A stretch of DNA of 64,000 bases from contig JANJGN010000021.1 of the NCBI GenBank assembly GCA_026770705.1, positions 98,518,001 to 98,582,000 of the forward strand, written 5' to 3'. The stretch comes from Isurus oxyrinchus (lineage: Eukaryota). Under the pieces are notes generated by a model that saw nothing but the letters and a program-made list of their open reading frames with translations, was not told the origin of the DNA and made no database searches. The position numbers and the translations under genes are program-made. Of this stretch, positions 5,282-55,253 are shown one piece after another (position 1 is the first letter of the stretch; the number at the start of each line of letters is the position of its first letter).

Positions 5282-5808
5282 TCACACTACTAAATGGCGC
5301 AACTTAAGAGGCTTGGCATTTTTATCAATATCAGTCAGAGCAAAATATGGAAAGAGTTTCTCAGTGAATGTGTCAGTGTAAGTGAAGAGATGAGACATGT
5401 CATCAGCATTGTAAAATGACAACTGTCCTCCCTCGTGGTCCAGGTAAACTCCGATGGTGCTGGGTTTCACACTCAATTTAAAAATCTCATCAGTCTCATA
5501 ATTATCTCCATTTGTCAACGACAGAGTCCAATATCCATTTTCAGGGAGAGGATTGATTTCCCCCTTTCGATTGGCTGACTCAGTGGCCACACCAATAAGC
5601 CAGTTAGGGATGTCCCCTACTTCCACCTCCCAGTAGTGTTTCCCTAATGTGAATCCCTCTGATCCCAGGACACAGGGAAACTCATCGAATCTCTCTAAAT
5701 TATTAAAAAGTGGTACTTCCATGTCACCGAGTTTCATGCTGGTTAGGTTGTCAGACAAGATAAGCTGAGGATGTGCTGTGTTTGGGTCGAGAATCAGTGG
5801 CACTGGAA
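5282..5808 (-). CDS. TRIM gene 1 exon 6 (PRY-SPRY/B30.2)
   Basis: LDPNTAHPQLILS, ERFD..PCVLGSEGF..GKHYWEVEV, IGVYLD.EGGQLSFYN, FTEKLFPYF motifs; an alternative in-frame acceptor lies 6 nt inside. Confidence 0.95.
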
Positions 5809-17800: not shown

Positions 17801-18036
17801 CGGGCTTTCTCACAGAGATTGGCCAACACCCTGGCATTTTTATAGCACTTCTGGGAGAAAACAGCGCGGCATTCCGGGCAGGACACGACCTCACTCTGGT
17901 TTTCCCAACACTTCTGGATACAGGATTTACAGAAGTTGTGATCACAGTCCAGCCGCACCGGCTCCACAAACAGAGACAGGCAGATGGAGCAGGTTAAATC
18001 CTCGGCCAATGTTAACACCTGCTTGACGGTAGCCAT
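5282..18036 (-). CDS. TRIM E3 ligase (RING, B-box2, coiled coil, PRY-SPRY/B30.2; TRIM39/TRIM69/XNF7-like architecture), 6 exons, 527 aa, intact
   Basis: Exons 18036-17611 (426), 10864-10769 (96), 10535-10302 (234), 6882-6860 (23), 6771-6494 (278), 5808-5282 (527) total 1584 nt. All junctions GT/AG, phases 0,0,0,2,1, no internal stop. The 96/~231-234/23-nt exon series is typical of class IV TRIM genes. Confidence 0.92.
6494..6771 (-). CDS. TRIM gene 1 exon 5 (linker with D/E-rich expansion)
   Basis: CAG|A-CLGNEGEEGSDEDDADDEDD...LGEFRGPLLYAIWKEMKEIISP-G|GTGAG; the end matches the usual pre-PRY motif (F.GPL.Y..WKEM). Confidence 0.88.
6655..6741 (-). repeat. Coding (GAT/GAA/GCT)n repeat with 18-nt units GATGATGCTGATGATGAA encoding DDADDE
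   Basis: Plus strand reads (tcatcttcatcatcagca)n. Confidence 0.9.
6860..6882 (-). CDS. TRIM gene 1 exon 4 (23-nt microexon)
   Basis: CAG|GAAATGAAAAGATTGCCAGAAAG|GTGTGT = EMKRLPE(R); restores frame into exon 5. Confidence 0.85.
7180..8190 (+). mobile_element. Old degraded CR1 LINE in TRIM1 intron 3
   Basis: Residual YMD..KAFNKVPHKRLL, SSLLT (SKFAD-like) and LYKALVRSHL motifs. Confidence 0.7.
8540..8810 (+). mobile_element. tRNA-derived SINE
   Basis: Pol III A box TGGCGCAGTGG (8547-8557) and B-box-like GGTTTGAGTCT (~8590-8600); no complete cloverleaf. Confidence 0.6.
10302..10535 (-). CDS. TRIM gene 1 exon 3 (coiled coil, 234 nt)
   Basis: TAG|ELTGTLEQHISKQFAKIHQYLQDKETCLIEEL...QQDNIIFLK|GTAAC; open frame. 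Confidence 0.9.
10769..10864 (-). CDS. TRIM gene 1 exon 2 (coiled coil, 96 nt)
   Basis: CAG|VQLKSSLDSLEDRKKCKSELKHQQEEKISELD|GTAAG; about 82% nucleotide identity to paralog exon 61074-61169. Confidence 0.9.
11590..12090 (-). mobile_element. Deu-domain-type SINE interrupted by a ~200-bp LTR-like insert (~11658-11861)
   Basis: Contains gggagagcagatggggccttggtttgacatttcatctgaaaga and ccctcagtagtgcactgg, recalled as typical of shark Deu-SINEs; the insert has TATAAATA, AATAAA and an ..AACA end. Confidence 0.5.
15770..17150 (-). mobile_element. Degraded CR1 LINE fragments in TRIM1 intron 1
   Basis: ORF fragments HISLKVAGQIEGVAEKAF and GIKGAAAAWIGNWLSDRK; CR1-type 3' end near 15770-15850. Confidence 0.7.
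17611..18036 (-). CDS. TRIM gene 1 exon 1: C3HC4 RING + B-box2
   Basis: [31 protein letters not shown]...CPECR; CEEHDEKLKLFCEDDLSLICVICRDSPAHSEH; donor AAG|GTAAG at 17611/17610. Confidence 0.95.
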
Positions 18037-18056
18037 GTCATTGTCCTGGAGTCCAC

Positions 18057-18073
18057 GTTTTCACTTTCATTTC
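18057..18073 (-). promoter_or_regulatory. ISRE/IRF-binding element of TRIM gene 1
   Basis: GAAATGAAAGTGAAAAC on the minus strand, 20 nt before the ATG; an equivalent motif sits at the same place in the paralog; palindromic ATTGGCCAAT at 18099-18108. Confidence 0.7.
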
Positions 18074-18111: not shown

Positions 18112-20840
18112 GATTCACTCACACTGTCACGTGATACTATACAACACGATGTCTTAAAGCTACTGTCACTGCATTCCTTAAAGCCACAATTACTACATTC
18201 CTTCCCCCTTTAAATTTTGTTGCACAGTTTGTATTTATAAGAACATCTACCTTCATGACATTACAAATATATACATGGGTCGTGGAATATAAGTCCAGTC
18301 TCTCAGGTCCGGTGGAGCGTTGTAGCTCCACCACTTGTGAATATCTTACAGGATCCGGAGCAATATCGGGTACTTCTTCAGGCACAGGCAGCTCAGTGCT
18401 ACCTACTCTGACAGAGACATCTGACGTGGCTTTCCTTGGCTGAACAATTTCAACAGGGAGCACAGGTTCTACAACGGTTACAGGTGGAACATCATTTTGT
18501 TGGGGTTTCTCCCTTCTTCTCAAATGATCCACTTGTTTGCAGGTGATCCAGCCCTCCATTTCTACGTGATAGGACAAGGGTCTGGCCACAGAAACTATTA
18601 CACCAGGTAACCACTGCATCTTGGAAAGTTCTATGACTTTTCCTTTTAAAGCCTCTTTAGCTTTATTCAGCCGATTCTTCAGCTGTTTGTTAGACAGCTA
18701 GCTTCACAGAGCTGGCACTGTCTTGGAGTTTCTCCGAACTCCGGTATCCAGTTTTATACAACTCCAGGGCTTCCCCCGAGCTCTCTCGGATTACCAGGGC
18801 TTCCCTTGAGCTCTCTCCGATTACCAGGGCTTCCCCTGAGCCGTCTCCGAATACCAGGGCTTCCCCTGAGCTCTCTCCGATTACCAGGGCTTCCCCGAGC
18901 TCTCTCCGATTACCAGGGCTTCCCCTGAGCTCTCTCCGATTACCAGAGCTTCCCCTGAGCTCTCACCGATTACCAGAGCTTCCCCTGAGCTCTCACCGAT
19001 TACCAGGGCTTCCCCTGAGCTCTCTCGGATTACCAGGGCTTCCCCTGAGCTCTCTCCGATTACCAGGGCTTCCCCTGAGCTCTCTCCAATTACCAGGTCT
19101 TCCCCTGAGACCTGTCCGATTACCAGGGCTTCCCCTGAGCCCTCTCCGATTACCGGGGCTTCCCCTGAGCCCTGTCCGATTACCAGGGCTTCCCCGAGCT
19201 CTCTCCAATTACCAGGGCTTCCCTGAGCTCTCTCCGATTACCAGGGCTTCCCCTGAGCTCTCTCCGATGACCAGGGCTTCCCCTGAGCCCTCTCCGATTA
19301 CCAGGGCTTCCCCTGAGCTCTCTCCGATGACCAGGGCTTCCCCTGAGCCCTCTCCGATTACCGGGGCTTCCCCTGAGCCCTCTCCGATTACCAGGGCTTC
19401 CCCGGGCTCTCTCCGATTACCAGGGCTTCCCCGAGCTCTCTCCGATTACCAGGCTTCCCCTGAGCCCGCTCCGATTACCAGGGCTTCCCCTGAGCCCTCT
19501 CTGATTACCAGGGCTTCCCCAAGCCCTTTTTGAGTTTCTTCTGTTGTGCTTCTATTCTACTGTTAAAGACAGACTTTATTTCTTCATGTTGCTGAATGGT
19601 TACACATTCCTTTTGCATTTGGTCTTGAAGGACAATCAACTGTTCTTTCAACTGTTTACTTTCTGGTTATCCTCCCTTTGGGGCTTCCTGTTGTCTTTGG
19701 CGGAGTTGTCTTCTCTCTGGGGTCTCTTGTTGTCTTCTGCTGGGTTGCTCCACCCAGGAATCTCTTCTTGCCAATGGACTTGCATTGTGAGTTTCCCTCT
19801 CACTGGGGTCTCTTCTAATTGTATGTCCATAGCAATTTTTCTTGTATTTAACCACTTTAAATGTTTTGCCACTTTAAGAGGAGTCACCTTTTTTTTAACA
19901 CCAGCTGTCTCTGCAGGTGTCAGCTTTTCTGTGCTGTTTTCAAGTTTCCTGTGCTTTTCATGTTTTGATGGGCTCACTGGAAAACAGGGCTGCGATTTTT
20001 TTCAACTCTATAAAACTTCCTTCATGTTCAAAAAACTCAGCAGTGAATTTTTCTCCCTTTTCTGGGCGATTCTGCAGGGTTTTTCTGTTTTTTTTTTACT
20101 AACTCCGCAGGATCATTTGACATTGGATGTCTCACACTTCAGGAGACCCAGTGGCCTCATGGTCCAATCTGAGCTAGAGTTTTTTTTAAATTTAAAACTA
20201 CAACACTGCTTTCTGCTCCAATTGCCTTTTAAAAAAAACTTGCAAGCTGTCTGCTCTCCAGCAAGCAATTTTTTTAAAACTCTGCAGTCTTTTTTTTAAC
20301 TGTGCACTGCAGGTTGTTTTTAAACCTTTCTTTACTTGCAGCAGCCGCCTATTTTACAATGATTCCCTTTTTTTTATTTTTATTTTTGCCTCTGCAGGTC
20401 CTTTTATTTAAATGCCGGGAGTGCTCCTGGAGATTCTTCAGCCATTTGGATCAGAGGCCTTTTTTTTTCTTTAACTTAAAACAACAGCACATCTGTTTTT
20501 TCTGTTTGAGCTCTGCAGCATACCTGGTGAGTATATTTTCCTTTTCTTCTGTTTAAACAAGATACTCACAGTCACTGGGCGAGGGACAACACCAGGCCCA
20601 ATCCCATTCTCATGTTATGAACTTGATTTTCCAGACAGGTTTCTCATTAGAAACATAGAACTTTATTTACAGGCTGCAGCAGCAGTTACATGTTTCCATC
20701 GAGCTCCACAACTAGAAGAACTTCCACTCTAAGGTTCCCTGTGCTTAAAGCTGATTCATTCACACTGTCACGTGATACTATAGAACACAATAAGTCTTAA
20801 AGCTACAGGCACTACATTCCTTAAAGCTACAATTACTACA
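18112..20840 (-). mobile_element. Deleted non-autonomous Gypsy-type LTR element (5' LTR ~20613-20840; truncated 3' LTR 18112-18197)
   Basis: Direct repeat 18112-18197 vs 20753-20840, starting TGTAGTAATTG on minus. Polypurine tract TTTAAAGGGGGAAGGAA abuts the 3' LTR. Integrase C-terminus WLPGVIV..PLSYHVE..QVDHLRRR and LQRSTGPERLDL (ORF 18137-18619). AATAAA inside the 5' LTR. Confidence 0.8.
18767..19525. repeat. ~30-bp minisatellite (CCGATTACCAGGGCTTCCCCTGAGCTCTCT), about 25 copies, inside the LTR element
   Basis: Directly visible tandem units; ORF track shows RELRGSPGNR and PITRASPEPS periodicity. Confidence 0.97.
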
Positions 20841-21859
20841 CAGTTCATCTTTATCTGCTGTATCAACACCCTTCATGATTTTAAACTCTCCAATTAAATC
20901 TCTTTTACCTTTTCTGTTCTAAAGAGAAAAATAACAGCTTCTTCAGTCTCTCCACATCACTCATCCCTATTGCCATTCTAATAAATTCCCTCTGCATGCT
21001 CTCCAAAGCGTCGATGTTTTAAAAATGGCAACATGCAATTGTTTTAGATAAATTAAATTGTTGTCGCCAGCCTGTGTGAAAATGGATGAGTGCAATTTGA
21101 TAAAGGAAGACAGAGGTGGTGAAGTAGCCACTAGAGGGCGTCCACATCCCATTTATTGGGCAAGATTTCCCCAGACCACAGAAACCACTGCCATTTATCT
21201 TGGCCCCTCATGTCTTCTAGCCTATTCTGGACTTTCAGTTATGAAGCAACCTGTCTCAGAGCAATCTGTGGTGTCCAACTGGTAGTCAGCCGGTCAAAGT
21301 TACTGTGGATTGCACTGAAGGTGCACAAGGAAGTAAAAGGAAGAACAAAAGGGAAGGTCCAGCACCTGCAGTATTTTTCTTTTGCTGCAATAAAGATGGA
21401 GGAACAAAAAGCACTGGAGATTGTTACATAAGGTCATGGCTTAAGGGGGTAATATGAGTTGAGTATTAGTTAGTGGGTAGCAACCAGAGTAGGGAACAAA
21501 GGGTAATTTGAGGGATCACAGAGTGAGAGCAGTAAGGTGCCACAAGGATCAGTGCCTGAGCCTCAGCTATTTGCATATTATATCAATGTATATCCAAGTT
21601 TGATGACGATATAAAGCTAGGTGGGAAAGTAAGCTATGAGAGGAGGCCACAAAGAGAAAGAGAAACAGACAGGGCAAGAAGATGGAGTATAAAATGGGGA
21701 AGCGTGAGGTGATTCGAAAGAAAGAAATGAAAAGCAGAATTTTTTTTGAACAGGAGAGGCAGCGCAATGTTGATATTCAACGAGATTTGGAGGTTGTTGC
21801 ACACAAATCACAGGAAGTTTACATGAGTATTGCTGAAAAAAATATACCTTTTTTGTAAA

Positions 21860-22451
21860 GCTCCCTATCCACTGTCCAATTAGACACTCCCAGGACAGGT
21901 ACAGCACTGGGTTAGATACAGAGTAAAGCTCCTCCTACGCTGTCCTCATCAAACACTCCCAGGTCAGGTACAGCACGGGGTTAGATACAGAGTAAAGCTC
22001 CCTCTACACTGTGCCCATCAAACACTCCCAGGTCAGGTACAGCACAGGTTAGATACAGAACAAAGGTCCCTCTACACTGTCCTCATCAAACACTCCCAGG
22101 ACAGGTACAGCACGGGGTTAGATACAGAGTAAAACTCCCTCTACACTGTTCCATCAAACACTCCCAGGTCAGGTACAGCACGAGGTTTGATACAGAATAA
22201 AGGTCCCTCTACACTGTTCCATTAAACACTCCCAGGACAGGTACAGCACAGGTTAGATACAGAGTAAAGCTCCCTCTACACTGTGCCCATCAAACACTCC
22301 CAGGTCAGGTACAGCACGGGGTTAGATACAGAGTAAAACTCCCTCTACACTGTCCCCATCAAACACTCCCAGGACAGGTACAGCACAGGTTAGATACGGA
22401 ACAAAGGTCCCTCTACACTGTTCCATCAAACACTCCCAGGTCAGGTACAGG
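21860..22451. repeat. ~67-70-bp minisatellite (ACACTCCCAGGACAGGTACAGCACGGGGTTAGATACAGAGTAAAGCTCCCTCTACACTGTCCCCATCAA), 8-9 copies
   Basis: Directly visible tandem units. Confidence 0.97.
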
Positions 22452-22692
22452 ATGGACAAATACACAATAACACTAGCTCCACAGAGCTCCATCAAATATC
22501 TGAAGAAGGAACACAGGATCTGTTCTGGAGGGTGCTGGCATGATCCCCAGTAAAGTGTTCGGAATCTGAGGAGAATGTGGGAAGAGAATGGAAGAAAATA
22601 AATTATTCCCGGGCATTGGCTACTGGGAATGGAAACACAGTCGGTTAGCAGTTAGGAACTTGTCAGTCTCAGCAGCATGTATTTTTTGAAGA

Positions 22693-22698
22693 TTTATT
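22693..22698 (-). terminator. Candidate polyadenylation signal of the MHC class I gene
   Basis: AATAAA on the minus strand about 160 nt after the stop at 22858. Confidence 0.5.
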
Positions 22699-22758
22699 TT
22701 ACATTTACAAATAACATTTAAGAAGCAGATGCACAATCTTTGCCCTATGAATGTATGA

Positions 22759-23048
22759 ATCTCTGCTGATCGCTGCTAGTCTCTGCCATTCTCTGATGGT
22801 TTCCGCCAGTCTCTCTGATCTCTGCCATTCTCAACTGTCTCGGACAGTTGCTGCTGGTCATTGCTGCTCTCTGCCACTATCTGCTGGACTCTGCCAGTGC
22901 TTGCTCGTCTCCCACCAGTCTCTGCATATCCTCCGCCAGTTGCACCAGTTTCTAATGGTCTCTGTCAACCTCTGCTGGCCTCCGTCAGTCTCTGTTAGTG
23001 CCTGTTGGTCTCTGCAAGTGTCTGCCAGTCTCTGCTGGTTGCTGCCTG
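22759..23048 (-). repeat. Degenerate 10-nt minisatellite (consensus YRGCAGAGAC), about 28 units, spanning the MHC tail and 3' UTR
   Basis: CAGCAGAGAC TGGCAGACAC TTGCAGAGAC CAACAGGCAC TAACAGAGAC ... TGGCAGAGAC TAGCAGCGAT CAGCAGAGAT. Confidence 0.8.
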
Positions 23049-23171
23049 TCACATCACTTGGCCTCTGCCTCCAGAAACCAAAGCCAATGATGATGCCAAG
23101 AAGAGTGAGTGAGAGGGCTGCTGCTCCAATCACAATTCTGACCTTCATGCCTCCTTGTGTCACTCTCTCTG
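22858..23171 (-). CDS. MHC class I connecting peptide, TM and cytoplasmic tail exon
   Basis: NAGNAG acceptor (TCAG|CAG|) in phase 1; hydrophobic IVIGAAALSLTLLGIIIGFGFW followed by basic RQR and a 70-aa tail. Confidence 0.75.
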
Positions 23172-26100
23172 CTGACACATAACGGTGTTATTAAAATGAT
23201 ATTGATAAATAATAATTTACTACCAATTCTGTACTTCATTAAGCCACAAACTAGTACTGTCCATGTCTGATATTCGAGAAATAATATTTTACATTTATGT
23301 GCAACCTTTCATGAACACAAGATTAGTTTGAGATTGGTGTAGGACTATGGGGGGAAGAGTGGGACAATGGACCAGTTTGAGATTGATACAGGGCTATGAG
23401 GTCAGAGGAGGACAATAGGATTAGTTTGGGATCAATACAGGGCCACGGGGAGAGAACAGGACTGTGGGATTAGTCTGGGATTGCTACAGGGCTATGCAAA
23501 GTGAGTGGGAGAGCAGAATTATTTTGCAATTGATATAGGGCTATGTGAAGATAGTGAGACAGTGGGATCAGTTTGGGATTGAGAAAGGGATATGGGGGGA
23601 GAGTGGGGCAATGGGGTTAATTTGGGATTACTCTAGCAAACAGCACAATCACAAAGGGCCAAATGTCTGTTCCATAGACTTGATCACTCGTTCAATCAAA
23701 TATTGTTTTTGCAGTATACATCCTACTCACATCCCAGCTCAACAGTCCTGTTCTCCTCCTGTTGTGGGCCAAGTGAAACAGCTTAATCCAGTCTACATTG
23801 TAGCAGCAAAGAATATTGTAAAAACATAAGAAACAGGAGCAGAAGTAGGTGATATGGTCTCTCAAGCCTGACCCATCATTCAATAAAATCATTGCTGAAC
23901 CTCTACATCAATCCTCTTTTGCATCTTACTCTAGACATAATGTGACTGGAGTCCACAGGGATCAGTGTTGTGGCCTCAACTATTCACTATTTATTTAAAA
24001 CAGAGTTGATGGGATGGAAAGCTGTATATCCAAATTTGCTGAGGAGACAAAGAAATTAGTTAGCAGTGTAGATGGAAACTTAGAACCCACAAGAGTTACT
24101 GATAGATTAAGTGAACGGACAAAACTATGGCAAATGCATTTCAATGTAGGTCATTCACTTATGATCTAAAAAGGATAGAACAGCCTATTTTCTAAATGGG
24201 GAAAGGGTAAAACAGCAGCAGTCCAAAAAGTACTTGGGAGTCCAGGTACACAGGTCATTAAAATGTCCTGAATAGGTTCAGAAAATAATCAAAGTGGGTT
24301 CATCAAGCCATTGTTTCCAGGACTGTCACTGACCTCATCTCCTCTGGGGATCTTCCTCCCACAGCTTCCAACCTGATAGTCGCCCAAACTCAAATGGCCT
24401 GCTTCTACCTCCTACCCAAAATCCACAAACAGAACTGTCCCGGTAGACCGATCATGTCAGTTTGCTCCTGCCCCACAGAACTCATTTCTCGTTATCTTGA
24501 CTCCCTTCTCTCTCCCCTTGTCCAGTCCCTCCCCACCTACATCCGTGATTCCTCTGACACCTTACGTCACATCAACAATTTCCACTTCCCTGGCCCAGAC
24601 CGCTTCCTCTTCACCACGGACATCCAATCCCTCTACACCTCCATTCCCCACCAGGATGGTCTGAGGGCCCTTAGCTTCTTCCTTGAACAGAGGCCTGAAC
24701 AATCCCTATCCACCACTACTCTCCTCCGTCTGGCTGAACTTGTTCTCACACTGACCAATTTTTCCTTCAACTCCTCTCACTTCCTCCAAATAAAAGGTGT
24801 GACTATGGGTACCCGCATGTGCCCCAGCTATGCCTGTCTCTTTATGATGTTTGTGGAACATTCCTTGTTCCAGTCCTACTCCGGCCCCCTACCAAAACTC
24901 TTTCTCCGGTACATCGATGATTACTTCGGTGCGGCTTCATGCTCTCATCGGGACTTGGAAAAATTTATTAATTTTGCTTCCAATCTCCACCCCTCCATCA
25001 TTTTCACATGGTCCATCTCTGACACTTCCCTTCCCTTCCTTGACCTCTCTGTCTCAATCTCTGGTGATAGACTGTCCACCAATATCCATTACAAACCTAC
25101 CGACTCCCACAGCTACCTCGACGACAGCTCCTCACACCTCGCTTCCTGTAAGGACTCCATCCCATTCTCTCAGTTCCTTCGCCTCCGTCGCATCTGTTCT
25201 GATGATGCTACCTTCAAAAACAGTTCCTCTGACATGTCCTCCTTCTTCTTTAACCGAGGTTTTCCACCCACGGTCGTTTGACAGGGCCCTCAACCGTGTC
25301 CGGCCCATCTCCCGTGCATCCGCCCTCATGCCTTCTCCTCCCTCCCAGAAACATTATAGGGTCCCCCTTGTCCTCACTTATCACCCCACCAGCCTCCGCA
25401 TTCAAAGGATCATCCTCTGCCATTTCCGCCAACTCCAGCATGATGCCACCACCAAACACATCTTCCCTTCACCCCCGGCCCCGGCGGCATTCCATCGGGA
25501 TCGTTCCCTCCGGGACACCTTGGTCCACTCCTCCATCACCCTCTACTCCTCAACCCCTACCTATGGCAGCTCCCCATGCCCATGCAAAAGATGTAACACC
25601 TGCCCCTTCACTTACTCTCTCCTCACCGTCCAAGGGCCCAAACACTCCTTTCATGTGAAGCAGCAGTTCACTTGCATTTCCCCCAACTTAGTCTACTGTA
25701 TTCGTTGCTCCCAATGTGGTCTCCTCTACATGGGAGAGACCAAACGTAAACTGAGCGACCGCTTTGCAGAACACCTGCGGTCTGTCTGCAAGAATGACCC
25801 AAACCTCCCTGTCGCTTGCCATTTTAACACTCCACCCTGTTCTCTTGCCCACATGTCTGTCCTTGGCTTGCTGCATTGTTACAGTGAAGCCCAACACAAA
25901 CTGGAGGAATAGCACCTTATCTTCCGACTAGGCACTTTACAGCCCTCTGTACTGAATATTGAATTCAACAACTTTAGATCTTGACCTCCCTCCTCCATCC
26001 CCACCCCCTTTCTGTTTCTTCCCCCTTCCTTTTGTTTTTTCCAATAATTTATATAGATTTTTCTTTTCCCACCTATTTCCATTATTTTTAAATATTTTTA

Positions 26101-29100
26101 AATCTTTTATGCTCCCCCCACCCCCACTAGAGCTGTACCTTGAGTGCCCTACCATCCATTCTTAATTAGCACATTCGTTTAGATAATATCACCAACTTCA
26201 ACACCTATGTGTTCTTTTGTTCTTTTGTCTGTGACATCTTTTGATGATCTGCTTCTATCACTGCTTGCTTGTCCCTACAACCACACCACCCCCCTCCACT
26301 TCTCTCCCCCCACCCAACCCCACCACCGCCCTGACTTTAAACCAGCTTATATTTCAACCATCTCCTTGGATTCACCTAGTTCTGTTGAAGGGTCATGAGG
26401 ACTCGAAACGTCAACTCTTTTCTTCTCCGCCAATGCTGCCATACCAGCTGAGTTTTTCCAGGTAATTCTGTTTTTGTTTTGGGTTAATGGAATGCTGGCA
26501 CTTATATCTAGAGGGCTATAATACAAGAAAGTAGAAGTCTTACTTCAGCTGTACAAAGCCCCAATTGAGGCCACATCTGGAGTGCTGAGAGCAGATGTGG
26601 GTGCCACATCATTGGAAGGGTATGTTGGCCTTGGAGTGCACGTAGCATGGATTCACCTTCTACAAGAAGAGCTTGACAAAAAAAGTGTAGCTACGAGGAG
26701 AGGTTGGATAGGTTGGGGTTATTTTCCTTAGAACAAAGAAGGCTGAGAGGTGACTTGATTGAGGTGTACAAAATTATGAGGGGAATAGATAGAGTGAACA
26801 GGATAAAATTGTTTCCCTTGGTGGAGAATTCTAGAACCAGGGGACATAGATTCAAGATAAGTGGCAGGAGGTGTAGGGGGGACATGAGGAAGAACTTTTT
26901 TATGCAGAGGGCAGTGGGTGTCTGGAATTCGCTGCCCAAGTTGGTGGTAGAGGCAGAAACTCTAAACTCTTTTAAAAAGTTCCTCATATGTTAAGCCTTT
27001 CATTCCTGGGATCGTTCTCGTGAGCCTCCTCTGGACCCTCTCCAGGGCCAGAATATCCTTCCTGAGATACAGGGCCCAAAATTGCTCACAATATTCTAAA
27101 TGTGGTCTGACCAGAGCCGTATAAAAGTACCTTAAGTGCTGTAAGGTGCAGGGATATGGGCTGGGTGTAGGAAGGTGGGATTAGAAAGGGTGCCTGGGTG
27201 TCCTTGGGCGAGCATGGACAAGATGGGCCGAATGACCTCCTTCTGTGCTGTAACTTTTCTATGGTTTTATGGTTTGGAAGTCTCTTCTGCAAAAGGTGGT
27301 TGATGCTACATCGATGGTTAATTTTTAAAAAATTACATTGATAGATTTTTGTTCACCATATTTATAAGGGATTTGGGACAAAGGAGGGTAACTGGAGTTG
27401 AGTCATGGCTCAATCACTGGATGGTGAAACAGGCTGGTGAGGCCTATATCCCTCATTGTTTAGGGATGCCTCAATCCTCTGACTACCAACACTTAGCAGT
27501 CTCTCTCCTTTTAAAAAATAAACAGGCAAGACCAGCTAACCTAACCCTGGGGCTTCTTGCTCTGAATGAGCAAACCAAGTGATAAGACCATAAGACATAG
27601 GAGCAGAAATTAGGCCCTTCGGCCCATCGAGTCTGCTCCACCATTCAATCATGGCTGATAAGTTTCTCAACCCCATTCTCCTGCCTTCTCCCCATAACCT
27701 TTGATCCCCTTACCAATCAAGAACATATCTATCTCGGTCTTAAATACACACAATGACCCGGCCTCCACAGCCTTCTGCGGCAATGAATTCCATAGATTCA
27801 CCACTCTCTGGTTAAAGAAGTTTCTCCTTATCTCTGTTCTAAAAGGTCTTCCCTTTACTCTGAGGCTGTGCCCTCGGGTCCTAGTCTCTCCTACTAATGG
27901 AAACATCTTCCCCATGTCCACTCTGTCCAGGCCTTTCAATATTCTGTAAGTTTCAATCAGATCCCCCTTCATCCTTCTAAACTCCATCGAGTATAGACCC
28001 AGAGTCCTCAAACCTTCCTCATATGTTAAGCCTTTCATTCCTGGGATCATTCTCGTGAACCTCCTCTGGACCCTCTCCAGAGCCAGAACATCCTTCCTGA
28101 GATACGGGGCCAAAAATTGCTCACAATATTCTAAATGTGGTCTGACCAGAGCCTTATAAAGCCTCAGCAGCACATCTCTGCTTTTAAATTCTAGTCCTCT
28201 CAAAATAAATGCCAACATTGCATTTGCCTTCCTAACTACTGACTCAACCTGCAAGTTAACCTTAAGAGAATCCTGGACTAGAACTCCCAAATCCCTTTAC
28301 ACTCCAGATTTCTGAATTCTCTCCCCATTTAGAAAATAGTCTATGTCTCTATTCTTCCTACCAAAGTGCATGACCTCACACTTCCCCACATTGTATTCCA
28401 TCTGCCACTTCTTTGCCCGTTCTGCTAAACAGTCCAAATCCTTCTGCAGCCTCCCCGCCTCCTCAATACTACCTGTCCCTCCACCTATCTTTGTATCATC
28501 TGAAAACTTAGCCAGGATGCCCTCAGTTCCTTCATCTAGATCATTAATGTATAAAGTGAAAAGTTGTGGTCCCAACACTGACCCCTGTGGAACTCCACTA
28601 GTCACCGGCCACCATCCTGAGAAGGACCCCCTTATCCCCACTCTCTGCCTCCTGACAGACAGCCAATCTTCTATCCATGCTAGTATCTTGCCTCTAACAC
28701 CATGGGCTCTTATCTTACTGAGCAGCCTCCTGTGCGGCACCTTGTCAATGGCCTTCTGGAAGTCTAAGTAGATAACATCCATTGGCTCTCCTTTGTCTAA
28801 CCTACTCGTTACCTCCTCAAAGAATTCTAACAGATTTGTCAGGCATGACCTCCCCTTGATGAAACCATGCTGACTTTGCCCTATTTTACCATGCACTTCC
28901 AAGTATTCTGAAATCTCATCCTTAATAATGGACTCTAAAATCTTACCAATGACCAAGGTCAGGCTAATCGGCCTGTAATTTCCCGTCTTTTGCCACACTC
29001 CCTTCTTAAACAGGGGGGTTACATTAGCAATTTTCCAGTCCTCTGGGACCCTCCCTGACTCCAGTGATTCCTGAAAGATCATCACTAACACCTCCACTAT

Positions 29101-32100
29101 CTCTTCAGCTATCTCCTTCAGAGCTCTGGGGTGTAAACCATCTGGTCCAGGTGATTTATCCACCTTCAGACCTTTCAGTTTTTCTATCACCTTTTCCTTG
29201 TTAATGGCCACCATACTCACCTCTGCCCCCCGACTCTCTTGAACTTTGGGGATGTTACTTGTGTCTTCCACTGTGAAGACTGAAGCAAAGTACCTATTCA
29301 GTTCTTCCACCATTTCTTTGTTCCCCACTACTACTTCTCCAGCGTCATTTTTCAGTGGCCCAATATCTACTTTTGCCTCTCTCTTACCCTTTATATTTCT
29401 AAAAAACTCTTGCAATCTTTTTTTATATTACTGGCTAGTTTACCCTCACTTTTAATCTTCTCCCTCCTTATTTCTTTTTTAGTTGTCCTCTGTTGGTCTT
29501 TGTAGGCTTCCCAATCCCCTGGCTTCCCACTGCTCTTCGCCACGTTGTATGCTTCCTCTTTCGCTTTTATGCTGTCCCTGACTTCCTTTGTCAGCCATGG
29601 TTGCCTCGTCCTCCCTTTAGTATGCTTCTTCTTCCTTGGGATGAATTTTTGCCGAGTCTCCAAAATTACTCCCAGAAACTCATGCCACTGCTGTTCCACT
29701 GACTTTCCTGCTAGGCTCATCTCCCAGGAAATTCTGGCCAGCTCCTCCCTCACGCCTCTGTAGTTGCCTTTATTCAACTGTAATACCATTACATCTGATT
29801 CCAGCTTTTTCCTCTCAAATTGCAGGGTAAATTCTATCATATTATTGTCACTTCCCCCTAAGGGTTCCTTCACCTTAATCTCCCTTATAATACCTGCCTC
29901 ATTAAACATCACTAAATCTAGAATTGCCTGTTCCCTAGTGGGCTCCACCACAAGCTGCTCCAAAAAGCCATCTCGTAGACATTCCGCAAATTCCTTTTCT
30001 TGGGATCCACTACCAACCTGATTTTCCCAGTTTACCTGCATATTGAAATCCCCCATGATCACTGTAATCTTGCCTTTCTTACATGCCCTTTCTATCTCCT
30101 GGTGTATCTTGTGCCCCATATCCTGACTACTGTTCGGAGGCCTGTACATAACTCCCATTATGGTTTTGCGGTTCCTCAACTCTACCCACACAGATTCTAC
30201 ATCATCTGACCCTACGTCATTTCTTGCTATCGATTTAATTTCATTTCTTACTAACAAAGCAACCCCACTCCCTCTGCCAACCTGCCTATCTTTTCGATAG
30301 GATGTATATCCTTGGATATTTAGCTCCCAGTCCTGATCCCCTTGTAGCCCTGTCTCCGTGATGCCCACCACATCATACCTGCCAATTTCAATCTGCGCCA
30401 CAAGCTCATTTACCTTATTTCATATACTGCGTGCATTCAGATACAACACCTTCAGTCCTGTATTTCCCGTCCCCTTTCTCATTGTCATCCTGTTATCTGA
30501 TGTGCTTGAAGTTAGATTCCTAGCCCTTTCCAAACACTCTGTCCTATTTTCTACCAGGGCTGGTGGAAGGACCCTGCCACCATGTAACTAGTCACTTACC
30601 CCAGGGCACGTCAAGGCCCTGCAGGAGGCTGGCATGCTCGACATGACAGGAATATCTCTCCCCATCATCTCCACTTAGCTCAATCGTTTTCATCACCCGG
30701 TATGTCTCATCCTGGTTGGGCAGCGTGCCACTGGTTTCACTGTCGGAGACCTCCTCGCCATTCCTCAGCCATGTCACATCGATGGGCCATGGATAAAAGC
30801 CCGTCACAAGGCAGGAGAGCCTCAGCCCTCGCTCAGCCTTGGTCTTATTCCCAATGAACACCTCCGGGGTGGCTGCCAGAGTGAAACAAAGACTAAAATC
30901 ACTGATCTTATAGTTCTGATGAGAGATCATCAACCTTAACCATTAACCCCCTTTCTCTCTCCACAGGTGCTGCCAAGAATTACCTGCCTTTTCTAGTTCT
31001 TTCAGATCTCCAGCACCTGTCGGATTTTGCCTTTCTATTCATGACAAATTCTCTTTTCATTCCTTTATCGTTTCCCTGTCCATCAACCTTCTCAGCTGAA
31101 GGCAGGTGACTGGTGCTGTGACATACAACATAAGGAAAGAAAAGCTGAGGGGGTGACCGACTAGATGTTTTTAAAATTATGAAGGGGTTCAGTATGGAGA
31201 TGTAGAGAAGATGGGGGAGTGGGTGGTGGTGGTGGGGTTACAGTGGTTGGTGGGGATGTTGGCATTGTGGTAGCTTCACTGGACTAATAATCTAGAAGCC
31301 CAGGCTAACGCTCTGGGAACATGGGTTCAAATCCCATCACAGCAGCTGGTGGAATTTAAATTCAATGAATAAAATCTGGAATTATGAAGCATATGAAAAA
31401 TTGCTGGTCTTGCCAGCAATGTCCAAATCCTATGAAAGAATAAAGAAAAATGTTGTTTCCACTTGGGCAGATGACAAAGACCATAAATATACAATAGTCA
31501 TGAATAAATACTTCAGGAGAAACTTCCTTACCCAGAGAGTGGTGAGAATATGACATTTGCACCTAGAGTGGTTGAGGTGAATAGTAGAGCTACATTGTAC
31601 TAGCTGAATACATGAGGGAGAAAGGAATAGAAGGACCTACTGATAGGGTGAGATGAAGTCAGCTGGGAAACAGCTTGTGTGGAACATAAATGCCTGCATA
31701 GACCAGTTGGGCCAAATGGCCTCTTTCTGCGCTTTGAATTCTCTAAAATTCGACACAAAGCCACACTTTTGCATGGCACACAGGTACCCATTATTACACA
31801 ATGAGACCCAGGAAGCCATTCAACAAGTGAGGTATTATAGCTTAGGCCAATCCTATCCCATCCTGACATGGTTACTAGGTAAAAAAATTGAATTTAGCTC
31901 AGCTGCCGAAATCCTACCCCCTCCCCACCTCACACCCTACAGCAGGCACTGCTGTGTATTGCGGCCAGTTGCAGCACCAACTCACTTGTACCCTGTCCAG
32001 GAACAGCTAAGGAGAGACCCGGGTATAAAATTTAGTCTGTACCACTTGGGGGTGCTCCCTCTGGTCACCATTCCCATGACGTACCTCTCCTCTGCAAAAC

Positions 32101-35100
32101 CCCTTGCCCATACTCGAGATAAATCAGCAGCCATTTCACACAGTCCTTTTCCAACAGAGCCTTGAAGTACTTGTTCATGAAGGAGTTGGCATTCCATCGG
32201 GCTGCTAACCTCTGGAACTCTGGATTTAGCGGATTCCAACTTCTTCTGTCCTTGTCAAAAACAAATGCATCCTCTCCATCGTATCCCAGCTTTATAAAGC
32301 CATCCGTGGAATTATCGCTGGATATTTTGCAGCCACATGTTCCCTGGACAAAGAAAATACCTGGAAAGTGCATTAGTATTCAAATCAATCCACAACGTGA
32401 AAAGGGTTCAGTCAGGTAGTTTGCATTTATACAGCAAATTTAACAGCATAAAATGTTCCAAGGCGTTGCACAGCGGCATCATTGAACACGATTTGACCTT
32501 GGGCCACATGAAAGTATATCAGGGCAGGCGATCGAGAGCTTTTATAAAGGGGTCAGTTTTCAGTAACACCTCAAAGAGAGAAAGAGAGGTGGAGAGCTTA
32601 ATGGAAGGAATTCCACAGAAACAATTTCCCCTAACTGGGGGGGAATCAAGGACAATCAGGATTGAAATGTCCTCAGGGCTCTGCCCTGCAGTGAAAAGAG
32701 ATGGTGGCTCCTGTTGAATGATTCCTTGAGCAGACTGTCAAAGTTATTTGGAAGAATACCTCATCGCCAGGACTTTCAAACAAGCCGCAAGGCGTAGCTT
32801 GACGAGAAAGATCCTCCTTGATCAGATCCTCTCTGCAAGTCCGGAGTCACACCCTCTCTGCAGACTGCTCTTGAGGTGGCTGTGTTGGGGAAGAGACCAT
32901 CACCCACCTCCCTCTGCATTATGCCTTTTTGCTAAGCAGGTCTGGAATAAGATGCAGCAGCTTTTGTCGAGATCCATCCAGAGCAGCTTCATAATGTAGG
33001 GCCCTGTGCTCTGCGGGCTGTTCCCAGGGACACATCCAGAGATAAACGTCATCTGCTGCTGGAGGACCATGAACTCAGGTGAACAGCACGCTCTGTCCTG
33101 CCTGAAACTTGTTGGTCTTCCAGTGCCAAGAGCTGTCAATGATCCAGTGTTGCAGACTGGCACATCCCAAAGTCCAGGACTGCGTGCCCATGGACGCAGT
33201 AACATTTGGAACAGCCATTGCAGAGACTCAATGGGGAAAGCCCACTGTCTAAGGCCCTCCTGCCATTGTAAACTCAGAGGCTGGAAACCGTGTAAAACCC
33301 TTTGGGCCACATGTTTGACATATAAATGTACATTATAAGTATAACCTGTAATTATAAGTGTAGTGAGGCACCTCAGATTGCCACTGCATTGAATGAAACT
33401 GATCCATTTTGCATGTTATATGATGTCAAATTTGAAATGTTTTGTTAATGTACTTCTTTAAATGTTAGAAATAAAGTTTAATTTGGGGGGAAAAAAACCA
33501 AGGACAATCGCATCATCTTAAAATTAGAGCCAGCACATCTGGGAGCGAAATCAGGAAGCACTTTTCCACAGAAAGGGTGAAATAAGATGGAACACTTTCT
33601 GTCTCTGTCCCTCTCTCTCCCTCTAAAAGTCCATGGATGTTGGGGGACAATTGGAACATAAAAGGCGGAAATCAAAAGATTTTCTACTTCTCTTTAGCTC
33701 TGAAGAAGAGCCATACAGACTCGAAACTTTAACTCTGTTTCCCTCTCCGCAGATGCTGCCAGACCTGCTGAGTTTTTCAAGCATTTTTCATTTTTATTTC
33801 AGCATCCGCAGTATTTTGCTTTCATCAAAAGATTTTTGTTGGGTAAGGATATCAAACGATAAGCGAAGTCAGGTCGATGGGTCAAAATGCAAATCAGTTG
33901 TTAACTAACTGAATGATGGAGTAGACTTGAGGGACTGAGAAATATTATCCAGTTCCTACATTCCTAGTTACGTTCAACTGAGACTCCATCCACCTGGCTC
34001 ATCACCACTGTCTCATCATTTTATAAAGGGCAATAAGTACTGGCCTTGCCAGCGATGCCCATATCTCAAGAAATTTTTTTTTTAGAAGTCCCGCTGTGCA
34101 GAACTTTTAACTTAGTAGAAGCTTACATAGTATTTACAACAGAGAAAGAAGCCATTTGGCCCAAGCAGTCCATGGGTTAGAAGACAAGAGGACCATCTTG
34201 TGACAAGGAATCACTGATCTCGGGAACAATTTGTCAGGATATGCAGTGAGTGTGGACTGGAGTGTTTGAAAGGAAGCTGGATGATATCTCGAGTTATCAA
34301 GGGTTTGTGAAGTTAACAGGGACCAGTCTAGTCTTCTGCACCTTCCTCAATTCACCAGAGGAAGTTTTCAGAGATATTGTTTTCCTATATTGCCCAACGT
34401 TTAGTTCATATTTTTTGCCTGTCCAATCAGATTCCATAACTCTGACAGTGAGCTAATACTATCACTGTGCCAAAGTAATATGTTGGGCTGACGGTACTGA
34501 AGGAGGGCTGCACTGTCAGAGGGTCAGTGCTGAGGGAATGCTGCACTGTCAGAGGGTCAGTACTGAGGGAGTGTTGCACGGTCGGAGGATCAATACTGAA
34601 GGAGTGCTGCACTGTCACAGGGTCAGTACAGAGGGAGTGCTGCACTGTCACAGGGTCAGTACTGAAGGAGTGCTGCACTGTCACAGGGTCAGTACTGAGG
34701 GAATGCTGCACTGTCACAGGGTCAGTACTGAAGGATTGCTGCACTGTCAGAGGGTTGCCAAGTTATTCCAGAAAGTGACAATGAACAGCTAATTTCAAGT
34801 CATTTATTGGGCGTGAAGTGGTTCATAAATTTCTAAGGCTCTGTATCAATACAAACCTTTTCCTCCAGTCATGGTCACTGCACTGTCACTGTGAGGACAC
34901 CTACCTGAAGCTCCACGGCGCTGCCGGTAAAATATCTCGATGTTTCCTCTGACGAGACCGTGGAATCCTGCCATTGTGATAGTCATGGCAGCCCAGTGAT
35001 CCCTCTGGAAGGACTCAGCCATCCATCGCTGTCTGGGTACAATCTGCTGCAGAGTGCTGTCGAAGTAGGCTATCTGACAGTTGTCCAGCATCGCCACCAA

Positions 35101-38100
35101 ACTGTACTCAGGCAGCTCAGCCTGGCCAAAATTCAATAAGTAGTAGAACGCGAGGATGTGAAAATCTGCAGGGTCACAAACAGGAACCTGACTCAAAATT
35201 GTCATCGATTGCAAACTAACTGAAATTGAGAATGGCACATGTTAATACTAAACTAGAGCACAAGACATAGGAGCAGGAATAGACCACAAGGCCCCTCGAG
35301 CCTGCTCTGCCATTCAATAAGGTCATGGCTAACCTTCTAGCTCAACTCCATTATCCTGCCCAATCCCCATATTGCTCGATCCCCTTACTGCTCTAGAATC
35401 TATCAAGTTCATTCCCAAATATATCTGTTATAGAACTGCCTTGTCACCAGTTTGTTACAGAGTTGCTCTTTAGACAGACTTCGCTAATGGAAATATTTGG
35501 TTTATTTACAAGACAGCCAGCAGCAACTACATGTGTGCTTTCAACTCCATAACTTCATCTCTACTGTCTGTGGAGGTAACCCACACTGTTAACACATTGG
35601 TTTACAGAGGTCATGCAATCTTACATCACAGGATATTCTTAAAGCTGCAGTCCAACATTTCCCAAAACTATAATTACTACAATATCCATGAATAGGCATC
35701 CACAACTTTCTGGGATAGAGAATTCCAAAGATCACAGTTACAATATTGTGTCCAAGTTTGGATCCTGTCAAGATCAGGGAGTGGTTGTGGAAGAGATTTG
35801 CCCAGGTCATTCCCTTGGTCTGAGAGGATTGAGCAACGAGGAGAGACTGGGATTCTTTCCACTGAGACAGACAAGGTCAAGAAGATCTTATTGATGTGGC
35901 AAAGCTATTGGTGGGGGCAGTAATGAGAATCAACATTTCTTATTGTTTGATGAGTCAGTAACAATAGGGGCATAAGCTAAACATCATCATTAAAGGAGCA
36001 AAGGGAGCGTTTATTTTCACGGAGAGGAATATTGGAATATGGAAGCCGGGGTTTTCTGCCACCTCTCAAAATGGATGCCAGCAATCCTGACTGGAAAATT
36101 CCTCCCGTGATTCTCCCGCCACAGGTGGGTACACTGGCATTGTCCGATATGCCAATTTATTCAAATTAACAACACAGTAAGATGATTTATTTTTATATTC
36201 ACTCACGGGATATGGGCGTTGCTGGCAAGGTCAGCATTTGTTGCCAATCCCTAATTGCCCTTGAATTGGGTGGCTTGCTAGGCCATTTCAGCAGGCAGTT
36301 AACAGTCAACCACATTGACTGGAGGCACATGTAGGCCAGACCAGGTAAAGATGGCAGCTTTCCTTCCCTAAGAGACATTAGTGAACCAGATGGATTTTTA
36401 CGACACGCGATGATAATTTAATGATCAACTCACCTGAGACTAGCTTTATATTCCACATTTATGAATTGAATTAAAATTCCACCAGCTGCCTTGGTGGGAT
36501 TTGAACCGAGTGTACCCAAAAGCTTTAGCTTGGCCTCTGGATTACTAGGCCAGTGATATTACCACTACACCACCACCTCCCCATATCTCAGGAACGTGTT
36601 GAATTATTGTAAAGTCAGCAGCAAATTATCTCCATAATCAGACACATTGTTCACTTTGGCCTTGACTCATCAGACTATAATAAACCTGTAGTTTGCTCAG
36701 AAAAAAATTCATTCTTTGGCAGAGCGGCAGCTTGGACAGTGCCAAAGTTCATTGTGTTTCTGTGAGGCGAAGGTGGAGCCGGAGGGCAGGGTTAGACTCT
36801 ACACCGACTTCAGTATCTCCCGATTGATGGAGGAGGAGGTTCAGAAAGAATTTACATTTATATAGCGCCTGTCACAACCTCAAGACATCCCAAAAGGCTT
36901 CAAGCCAATGAAGTAGTTTTGAAGTGTAATCACTGGTGTCTTGAAGGAAACTGCATTCATTATGTGAGGTGGTTTGAACCCAGGGCTAAGGCTGTTAAAA
37001 TATGAGGATATGTTGCATTGATTAGTGTATGCTCCATTAAATAGTGAAGAGTAAGGGACTGTGTAATTTAGATGGTTAAAGAATTTGAAATGCTGGATAG
37101 AGGAAAACTGTTAGGGATGGACAATAAATGTGGTTTTGCCAGTGATGCCCACGTCCCATAAACAAATAAAACTAAATTTTAGTGGGGAATTGCAGGACAA
37201 GGGGGCAGTGACATCAGAAAGCACTTCTTCACAAAAAGATGATGGAAATCTGGAACTATCTGTCTCAAAGAGTTATTGAAGTTGGGAGAGTCAGGTGAAT
37301 TTTTTGAAACAGATGGTTGGGATTTTTGTTAGGCAAAGAAGTTAAGGGTAATGGAAGCAAGAAGGATTGATGGAGTGAAGATAGAAGTCAGCCACAATAT
37401 AATTGAATGGTGGAATAGGTTCCAGGAGTTGAATAGCAACCTCCTGTTTCTATGAGATGCTTTGACTGGGTACAGCAGCTTACATCAATATAGATAGACA
37501 CCTCAGAGCACCTAGCAGGAGGGAAAGCCAAGAATAAGGAGCATAAGCAGATTCAAAATTACAGTTCACATAGAAGGATCTACAGCAACTTCTGGAGGGT
37601 GGGAAGATACAAGGCAGACATACTGAGGAAGAGTGCTGTAGAGGACTGGGGCATGAGAGACTGAGACTCAAGAGCTACCAGAACAGAGGCAATGGAGGTG
37701 GAGAATAAGCCAGAGTGGAGCAGCATGTGGCAAATACGACTGGAAGAGATTGCATAGGCAGGAAGGATGGAGGCCACGGAGGGCTTTAAAATGTAGAAAT
37801 GAACTTTAAGATCAGTTCCATGGAGTGAGAGGAGCTGATGGGGTTTGACAAGGGATGGGGAGTGGGGGAGGAGGAAGAATAATCCACCCCAATGCAATAT
37901 CAGGCGTGGCTGTAGCTGAGTGAGATCGGGGCAGATTTCCACCTTCGCCACCTGAATGTTAAGTAGCAACTGGGAGGAGAGCAGGAAGCAAAACGTGGAG
38001 CGGAGGATCACACAAGGGAGAAAAAAAAGCTGCTGCACTTTCCTGTGATTGAGATCCAACCCACCTCCAGAAAATCCCCATACCCAGGCCAGGTCTCCTT

Positions 38101-38701
38101 TCTGTTCCTCAGCTCAGCTGATGTTTAATATCCAGGAGGTCAAGCAAAAATCTGGTCCATTACGTGAGAGAGAAAAGAAGAAACCTACTTCAAACACCCA
38201 CCGAGGGAAGGGCATACATATTGCTCAAAGAAATTCTCTCCCTGCCCTTCCCCTTTGCATTCTCCATTCCTATTCCCTCCCATTCTCATCCCTTCCTTTC
38301 AGTTCCATTGCCTTTCCCAATCCTCATCCCCACCCCTCACCTTCCCTTCTTTTCCCTTCCAAGTTATAGCTCTAATTCACGCCATCTCAATTACTATTAT
38401 TTGTATGCCCATTTTGACAATAATTGTCAGGCCATCTAACAGCTGCCCCATTGAAAAACTTTGCAAACAAATCTTTGACACAACTTCTCACAGTGACCCT
38501 CTCCTGCAGGGATCACCCTTACCCTGAATCACTGACACACCCAGGGCAAAGAAAATGCTCCCGGCCCAGGGGACTCTTGACACTACCTTGTGACACTGCG
38601 GGGCTCCCCCTAATACTGTCCACAAATATAAGCTCTTTAAATTGCTTACCAGAGGAGACTGAGGACACACAGCAAACATTCAGTAAAGTAACAAGCAGCA
38701 T
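22858..38701 (-). CDS. Divergent (nonclassical) MHC class I heavy chain, 5 exons, 391 aa, intact
   Basis: Leader 38701-38650 (52), alpha1 35165-34905 (261), alpha2 32360-32085 (276), alpha3 30872-30600 (273), TM/cytoplasmic 23171-22858 (314) total 1176 nt. All introns are phase 1 GT/AG as in class I genes; alpha2 and alpha3 disulfide cysteines present. Confidence 0.9.
23320..23630 (+). repeat. G-rich ~47-50-bp degenerate tandem repeat (GGGATTAGTTTGGGATTGATACAGGGCTATGGGGAGAG...)
   Basis: About 6 units; same family at 40545-40930 and 54020-54428. Confidence 0.85.
24301..26480 (+). mobile_element. Penelope-like element (RT + GIY-YIG), 5'-truncated, with one frameshift and one stop, inserted into an older CR1
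   Basis: FLRYIDD and LVYCIRCSQCGLLYMGETKR motifs; extra T at ~25277 and TAG at ~25910 relative to copy 55254-57582; TGGGTT repeated at 24295-24300 and 26480-26485. Confidence 0.95.
26690..27270 (+). mobile_element. CR1 3' fragment carrying a ~145-bp opposite-strand insert from another CR1 subfamily
   Basis: DRLGLFSLEQRRLRGDLIEVYKI (ORF 26704-26994); segment ~26981-27125 matches ~28016-28160. Confidence 0.85.
27583..30546 (-). mobile_element. Relatively young CR1 LINE, near-complete ORF2 (APE endonuclease + RT) broken into three ORFs
   Basis: ORFs 29391-30401 (YDVVGITET, GVMYRPP, MGDFN), 28297-29415 (YRPISL, YLDFQKA.DKV, GVPQGSVLGP, FSDD) and 27667-28290; microsatellite-like tail at ~27583-27600. 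Confidence 0.96.
30600..30872 (-). CDS. MHC class I alpha3 exon (C1-set Ig)
   Basis: PEVF..LSCLVTGFYPWPIDVTWLRNG..LPNQDETY..YSCHVEHASL..VPW-G|GTAAGT. Confidence 0.96.
31255..31440 (+). mobile_element. tRNA-derived SINE fragment
   Basis: A box TGGCATTGTGG and B box GGTTCAAATCC; same family as 36190-36580. Confidence 0.65.
32085..32360 (-). CDS. MHC class I alpha2 exon
   Basis: VQGTCGC..GYDGEDAFVFDKDRRSW..RW..LEKDCVKWLLIYLEYG; boundaries TTCCAG| and G|GTACGT. Confidence 0.95.
32750..33497 (+). mobile_element. Tx1/L1-clade LINE 3' fragment in MHC intron 3 (alpha1-alpha2 intron), antisense to the gene
   Basis: FAKQVWNKMQ..LSR and VLCGLFPGTHPEINVICCWRTMNS resemble Tx1 ORF2 C-termini; ends with AATAAA and a short poly(A). 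Confidence 0.65.
33696..33734 (+). ncRNA. Minimal type I hammerhead ribozyme-like motif in a Penelope tail fragment
   Basis: AGCT-CTGAAGA-A-GAGCC ataca GACTC-GAAA-CTTT-AACT. Confidence 0.5.
34493..34753. repeat. 33-bp minisatellite (CAGTACTGAGGGAGTGCTGCACTGTCAGAGGGT), about 8 copies
   Basis: Directly visible; 11-aa periodicity in the ORF track; unit resembles part of the Deu-type SINE body. Confidence 0.95.
34905..35165 (-). CDS. MHC class I alpha1 exon
   Basis: FHILAFYY..LPEYSLVAMLDNCQIAYFDS..IVPRQRWM..DHW; boundaries CTGCAG| and G|GTAGGT. Confidence 0.92.
35426..35681 (-). mobile_element. Solo LTR (256 bp) related to the LTR at 20613-20840
   Basis: TG...CA termini; perfect 5-bp TSD ATATC (35421-35425 and 35682-35686); shares tttatttaca..gcagca..tacatgt and cttaaagct..aattactaca with 20613-20840. 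Confidence 0.88.
36190..36580 (-). mobile_element. Full-length tRNA-derived SINE with LINE-derived 3' tail
   Basis: Head GGTGGTGTAGTGG..GGTTCAAATCC; the tail matches LINE 3' ends at 48640-48705 and 60898-60960. Further copies at ~44415-44605 and ~49190-49492. Confidence 0.75.
37680..38050 (-). mobile_element. Degraded L2-like LINE fragment
   Basis: HFYILKPSVAS..AISSSRICH translation and similarity to the L2 fragments near 61700. Confidence 0.45.
38650..38701 (-). CDS. MHC class I leader exon
   Basis: ACAACATG context; MLLVTLLNVCCVSSVSS-G|GTAAGC; phase 1 joins to give mature DFHILAF. Confidence 0.78.
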
Positions 38702-54571: not shown

Positions 54572-55253
54572 CAGGTGAGTGACAGAATAAGGAGCAGCAA
54601 CTGAGATGGCTGTCAGTAAATCAATTTTATCCCTGACTGAGGATTTAACCTGCTCCATCTGCCTGTCTCTGTTTGTGGAGCCTGTGCGGCTGGACTGTGA
54701 ACACAACTTCTGTAAATCCTGTATCCAGAAGTGTTGGGAAAACCAATGGTTTGCTGTGTCTTGCCCAGAAAGTCGAGTGGTTCTCCCCCGGGGATGTTTC
54801 ACCAGTAACAGGGTGTTGGCCAATCTCTGAGAAAGCTCGACAAATGGAACTGAATCTAAAGCTGGAGGATTGTCTGCCTCACTGTGAGGAACACGGGGAG
54901 AAGCTGGTGCTGTTCTGCGAAGAGGATGAGATTCTGATCTGTGCCGGTTGTGTAGGTTCTCCCCCACATTCAGCCCACAGGTTCCTCCCTCTACAAACAG
55001 CACTTCAAAAGTACAAGGTATGGGGACACAGGGAGTTACTCGTCTCCATTGCTCATTGTGTTATTAGGGCTGTTTCGAGTTAGTGGACAAAATTTCATCG
55101 CATGACCTTGTTTGTAAACATCCCACCAGCAGGCTACCCCCTTTGGTTGCCCAACCTGTCCATCCTCACGAGTACAGACTTCCCAACCAATTGGAAAATA
55201 AACACTCATTATCTGATTGGACGACTATTGCCTCTCAGTCAAACAGTATCCTT

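Follow-up and report, generated by a model that had tools for sequence, protein, structure and literature searches.

An intact MHC class I gene of Isurus oxyrinchus that apparently represents an unnamed CD1-like branch beside UGA and UFA

A stretch of 64,000 nucleotides from Isurus oxyrinchus (assembly GCA_026770705.1, contig JANJGN010000021.1, positions 98,518,001 to 98,582,000; hereafter, the window) carries on its minus strand an intact class I gene of the major histocompatibility complex (MHC), which we call the window gene. The gene appears to be of the CD1-like class Ib kind found in sharks, and apparently forms an unnamed branch of its own beside UGA and UFA, the two CD1-like class I genes reported in sharks (PMC12562908). 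Because of its residue pattern and its kinship with UGA and UFA, we consider it fairly probable that its product is a non-polymorphic presenter of lipid-like ligands that would associate with beta2-microglobulin, be loaded outside the endosome and be read by a conserved receptor. Binding of CD1d-like lipids by UFA and UGA is mentioned in PMC12562908 (section 2.1) on the strength of a personal communication, and UFA has been called CD1-like as unpublished data (PMC10751288).

A preliminary description of this DNA, made from the sequence alone, proposed an intact class I gene, and further analysis bears this out. Five exons, when joined by their coordinates, encode 390 amino acids in a frame whose single stop codon is terminal, and all four introns are of the GT-AG type and in phase 1. 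The leader, the alpha1 to alpha3 and transmembrane exons, the cysteine pair C101-C164 and the C1-set immunoglobulin domain together place the product among MHC class I heavy chains. Residues are numbered here in the style of HLA-A2, as set by conserved landmarks and the HLA-A2 row of a supplement of PMC10751288. The features of the gene, with coordinates in the window, are as follows.

38650..38701, minus strand: exon 1, the ATG and a signal peptide of 17 amino acids, followed by a GT donor; the leader is near-identical in the Pristiophorus and Heptranchias orthologue models.
34905..35165, minus strand: exon 2, the alpha1 domain (Pfam MHC_I, weak; best match in the Protein Data Bank (PDB) 9CH4, which is UGA, E 7.8e-23), with F7, C31, H59 and Q84, and with the N86 sequon absent.
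32085..32360, minus strand: exon 3, the alpha2 domain (Pfam MHC_I, E 1.2e-16), with G97, C99, C101-C164, an NST sequon, A123, L143, R146, W147, F156, L159 and Y171.
30600..30872, minus strand: exon 4, the alpha3 C1-set immunoglobulin domain (Pfam C1-set, E 2.9e-19), with a second sequon, NKT.
22858..23168, minus strand: exon 5, the connecting peptide, transmembrane helix, cytoplasmic tail of 70 amino acids and stop codon.
22693..22698, minus strand: AATAAA, a probable polyadenylation signal about 160 bases after the stop codon and the sole such hexamer in 21501-22857.

The exon junctions are predicted from sequence. Of 19 sequencing runs, none is labelled as RNA, and no exon-exon joint is among the 15 contig joints listed, which had 72 others beside them. 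In one run, guessed to be RNA, one contig matches 30600-30873 and has 39 more letters that were not placed, and another extends 19 bases into the intron after alpha2. Three unlabelled runs have very high contig depth around the ectodomain exons (30300-35500), with contigs that continue through the introns, as would be seen with targeted DNA capture; repeats add depth too. A pattern resembling NF-kB sites occurs 7 times in the window, where 5.7 occurrences would be expected, and was therefore dropped.

Orthologues of the window gene, counted from search hits and cluster members, occur in 15 named species (11 sharks and 4 rays), and their domain identities range from about 57% to 99%. Two protein searches contributed, one with 11 hits among 30 candidates and the other with 14 among 2189, of which 13 belong to the window lineage and one is UGA. 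Since sharks and rays both carry the gene, the lineage, by this distribution, predates the shark-ray split. The hits obtained from Heterodontus, Rhincodon, Hemitrygon, Rhinoraja, Narcine and nurse shark include no orthologue, which does not imply loss, given that two clusters of two members each were left unopened. In Heptranchias perlo, the lineage is represented by eleven nearly identical proteins, which come from several small contigs and show 0-3 differences in alpha1-3; these are either a recent expansion or unmerged haplotypes.

In phylogenetic trees, the window lineage is a clade of its own. A quick tree of 53 rows (8 of an initial 61 were dropped) recovers it as 15 rows with SH-aLRT support of 100, and a careful tree of 34 rows over three domains recovers it as 9 rows at 100/100; UGA is a separate clade, likewise at 100/100, and long stems separate the two. 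In this tree of three domains, the lineage is placed next to UGA with moderate support (86/79), whereas alpha3 alone does not join them. In the tree of alpha1-2, which like that of alpha3 has 34 rows, the lineage is grouped with UGA and UFA at 94/87, with its order relative to UFA not resolved. The window gene falls outside the clades of UAA, UGA (orthologues of 9CH4), UFA (orthologues of 8GM8), UDA and UEA. Thus, the phylogeny called for in the preliminary description does not cluster the gene with classical UAA, and the question posed there, of a known or a new lineage, can be answered to this extent: its clade is distinct and corresponds to none of the five lineages placed in the trees. UBA, Squalus UCA and UHA, which like CD1 and MR1 were not part of the trees, were compared by eye, and no shared signature was seen with their rows in the PMC10751288 supplement.

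The position of the gene is also distinct from those of its relatives. With each exon as a query, searches of the genome (whose copy numbers are minimum figures) recovered one copy of the window gene, located on the contig of the window; the next-best matches have 41% (alpha1), 42% (alpha2) and about 50% (alpha3) identity. On the same contig, the UGA orthologue has its alpha1 at 98.47 Mb, about 69 kb downstream of the stop codon of the window gene and on the same strand. UFA is at 98.91 Mb, about 360 kb from the window gene, UDA is at 98.94 Mb, and many UEA-like copies occupy 98.97-99.33 Mb, where the UEA label is our inference from the number of copies, their location and their resemblance to the supplement row Gcirratum_UCA. 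This layout agrees with the description of the class Ib cluster in PMC10751288 (section 9). A classical-type (UAA-like) gene lies at 66.1 Mb, 32 Mb away, and the window gene is thus not at the class Ia locus. Because the genome's own copies of UFA and UGA sit at other loci, the window gene is the orthologue of neither. In alpha1-2, its identity is 41% to UGA, 32% to UDA, 27-30% to UEA, 29% to UAA and 25% to UFA.

UGA is the best match of the window gene in both sequence and structure (9CH4; row Gcirratum_UGA of PMC10751288, file 10), and residues L5, Y9, T66, G72, G76, G97, F156, L159, L160 and D163 are common to both. It is possible, if doubtful, that the gene is a second, functionally redundant copy within the UGA family that has already been counted under "low-copy UGA" in primary work. 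The tandem arrangement on one strand within the same class Ib cluster, the best tree and the description of UFA and UGA as "single- or low-copy" (PMC12562908) agree with this possibility, as does a chimaera protein matching the supplement row Cmilii_UGA, which groups with the window lineage in alpha3 only (88/78). However, in the 10 species in which both genes are present (this genome and nine named species), identity between the two in alpha1-2 is only 37-47%, and the stems of the two clades are long and separate. Floor, glycan site and tail differ as well: the window lineage has C99, H59, N77, F81 and F93 where UGA has F99, Y59, Q77, W81 and H93, and it lacks the N86 sequon. Orthology to the UGA-labelled chimaera protein, a long branch, was rejected over three domains (p-AU 0.028). 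This alternative bears on the naming of the gene more than on its mechanism.

As to naming, a literature search, which did not reach the primary UFA/UGA paper, found no name for the lineage, and the lineage is not among the labelled query rows in the supplement of PMC10751288. There is some chance, on the low side, that primary work on UFA/UGA, UDA or UEA already names it. In a sawfish table of PMC10751288, a gene called "class I-related" precedes three called "F10-like", and all four carry no label other than MHC-Ib; by name and order, these are probably the orthologue of the window gene and three copies of UGA. Because the table lists the matching genes only as MHC-Ib, the locus has probably been mapped earlier without being distinguished.

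The nine positions that anchor peptides in classical class I molecules read F7, H59, Q84, A123, L143, R146, W147, L159 and Y171 in the window gene, so that only W147 and Y171 remain. This string (FHQALRWLY, compared with YYRSTKWYY in Triakis UAA) sets the gene apart from classical class I. The preliminary description had read these nine residues in the same way, and its other residue assignments also proved accurate: the groove residues L24, M63, M67, F70, L73, V74, I80, F81, V95, G97, I114, L116, F156 and L159, the loss of the N86 sequon and gain of NST in alpha2, and the retention of H3, D29, Q96, G120, D122 and C101-C164. To that list can be added position 93, which is F instead of H. The alpha2 sequon (NST or NTT) is found in all 16 rows of the lineage, and the N86 sequon in none. 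Four of these rows, from carpet sharks, are marked by C45 and by replacement of W147 with L.

Over 37 positions that we take to line the groove, mean hydropathy in the window lineage is 1.40 (range 1.08-1.59 in 16 rows). The corresponding means are 0.74 in UGA (18 rows), 0.72 in UFA (2 rows), 0.21 in UEA (4 rows), 0.10 in classical-type genes (5 rows) and -0.56 in UDA (5 rows), so that the groove of the window lineage is the most apolar among the shark lineages compared. Charged residues in it are limited to R146 and D163. Twenty of the 37 positions are invariant in the lineage; for contrast, 14 of the 37 vary among 13 classical Triakis alleles. The helix tops, which we presume to comprise 26 positions, are more conserved than those of UGA (14 invariant positions compared with 5 in the 10 matched species). 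A hydrophobic groove without peptide anchors, as predicted from these residues, is a CD1-like trait, and the ligand is likely a lipid or other hydrophobic molecule rather than a peptide.

For structural comparison, we used a model of the ectodomain of the white shark orthologue (pLDDT 92.8), in which 3 of the 269 modelled residues are not those of the window protein; a model of a full-length orthologue (pLDDT 54) served only for reading the titles of PDB entries. The best fold match is UGA (9CH4), with TM 0.91, Z 28.2 and rmsd 2.1 over 267 aligned residues. With the groove values above, this upholds the earlier reading of a nonclassical molecule with a hydrophobic groove, whose nearest solved structure is that of UGA. 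Chicken CD1-1 (3JVG) is second, with Z 26.5 and rmsd 2.3 over 261 aligned residues, followed by HFE (Z 25.6), ZAG (25.3), FcRn (25.2), a peptide-binding marsupial class I molecule (25.1), CD1d (24.4) and UFA (23.5). PDB matches of alpha1 are, in order, 9CH4, 8GM8 and 6LUP. The entry titles identify 9CH4 (released 2026-03-18) as shark UGA and 8GM8 as shark UFA, and the rows bearing these two labels in file 10 of the PMC10751288 supplement match the chains of these entries by eye. Like UFA, the window gene combines an apolar groove without peptide anchors with a place in the same cluster, despite the low identity of the two in alpha1-2. With CD1 it shares the hydrophobic groove at only 23-28% identity (chicken CD1-1, human CD1d).

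Several points weigh against a lipid-like presenter. The support from the groove positions, whose conservation slightly exceeds that of random sets (0.896 compared with 0.840), is tempered by a modest p value (0.023) and by the relatedness of the species. The bulky apolar residues could instead fill the groove and close it, and three residues of the classical groove (W133, W167 and Y171) remain. The fold scores confirm the fold of the model without separating functions. The support that joins the lineage to UGA is moderate and is absent from alpha3 alone, and the tails discussed below derive from gene predictions, in which exons may be missing.

A closed, ligand-free groove, as in HFE, FcRn or MIC, with the top surface acting as a stress or self marker or binding a protein partner, is worth weighing, and we regard it as unlikely. 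Small residues of the alpha1 helix (A68, G69, G72 and G76) could let the helices close, the helix tops are conserved as noted, and HFE and FcRn have fold Z scores of about 25. On the other hand, the small floor residues G97, C99 and A123 suggest a cavity, pairwise conservation is at least as high in the groove (0.81) as on the helix tops (0.77), and lipid binding has been reported for the closest relative (PMC12562908).

Of the two unpaired cysteines pointed out in the preliminary description, both are present in the window gene, and only C99 is a property of the lineage: it is found in 16 of 16 rows (F99 in 18 of 18 UGA rows), whereas C31 occurs in 3 of 16 rows and in 16 of 18 UGA rows. In MR1, the lysine that holds the ligand through a Schiff base is K43. 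A presenter of this type, in which C99 would covalently bind a small reactive metabolite or electrophilic lipid, is quite improbable in our estimation. Apart from the invariance of C99, alpha2 scores highest against MR1, RefSeq calls the orthologues "class I-related", H59 aligns with a histidine of MR1, and the carpet sharks add C45. However, the position matching K43 is never K, as the window gene has I there and the remaining rows of the lineage have T, C, A or V; equivalents of R9 and R94 of MR1 are lacking; and the ectodomain as a whole is closer to UGA than to MR1. Moreover, C99 is found in the classical nurse shark UAA row (PMC10751288 supplement) and in 4 unrelated class I proteins among the 238 of the comparison set, and may be just a small residue. 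Because it occurs in a classical shark allele, covalent tethering by C99 is speculative.

Presentation of a narrow set of hydrophobic peptides, in the manner of H2-M3 or Qa-1, is very improbable. W147, W167 and Y171 persist and R146 is a conservative substitution, but every row of the lineage with coverage of the positions lacks Y7, Y59, Y159, R84 and T143, and with these residues both of the terminal hydrogen-bond networks are gone.

We return to the reading of a lipid-like presenter, for which the cytoplasmic tail suggests a route of loading. The YxxPhi motif of tails is an endosomal motif of the CD1b/c/d type. The long tail of the window gene has neither this motif nor a dileucine motif, and YxxPhi is found in none of 15 tails of the lineage, compared with 11 of 17 UGA tails. 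The gene thus differs in its tail both from UGA and from CD1b/c/d. The CD1-like motif in UGA tails suggests endosomal sorting of UGA itself. Predicted tail length among orthologues ranges from 15 to 98 amino acids, and the tail coding region (22760-23035) is built partly from degenerate 10-bp repeats.

In the mechanism that we propose, the heavy chain would pair with beta2-microglobulin. The small floor residues would open a cavity lined by L5, F7, L24, M63, M67, F70, L73, V74, F81, I114, L116, F156, L159 and L160. As the tail has no endosomal sorting motif, the ligand would be loaded in the endoplasmic reticulum or secretory route or at the cell surface, unlike that of UGA. The conserved helix tops, with small (A68, G69, G72 and G76) and charged (K154, E161, K162 and K166) residues, may dock one conserved receptor, presumably borne by an innate-like T cell or natural killer cell.

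Other elements surround the gene. Between the window gene and UGA, on the same strand, is a TRIM gene with RING, B-box, coiled-coil and PRY-SPRY domains (5285-18060, minus strand); TRIM39-like genes are also near the matching sawfish cluster. The B-box exon of a second TRIM-like gene, in which no RING was detected, is at 54649-55080 (plus strand) and is followed by a long Penelope-like element (55084-57033) with matches to reverse transcriptase and GIY-YIG. Retrotransposon remnants in the last intron of the window gene (24289-25980, plus strand, and 27670-30419, minus strand) are Penelope-like and LINE-like by eye. Minisatellites are located at 18764-19520, 21855-22450, 23321-23629 and 34494-34755, with periods of 30, 68, 49 and 33 bases, respectively. 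Elsewhere in the genome, at 53.77 Mb of a contig other than that of the MHC (contig C16), lies another class I gene, which is UEA-like and whose alpha1, alpha2 and alpha3 exons are open.

A third CD1-like gene, more conserved and more hydrophobic than the other two and with a different tail, would, if our reading is true, mean that a CD1-style division of labour, between endosomal and non-endosomal sampling of lipids, arose before sharks and rays split. In a bolder version, which we think improbable, this third lineage would load outside the endosome and its invariant C99 would bind a reactive lipid or metabolite covalently, to be read by one invariant receptor; the chemistry of C99 would then be a thiol counterpart of the lysine chemistry of MR1 in the oldest adaptive immune system. 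With its conserved top surface, the protein would be well suited, as a tetramer, to capturing the innate-like T cells of cartilaginous fish, which have yet to be identified.

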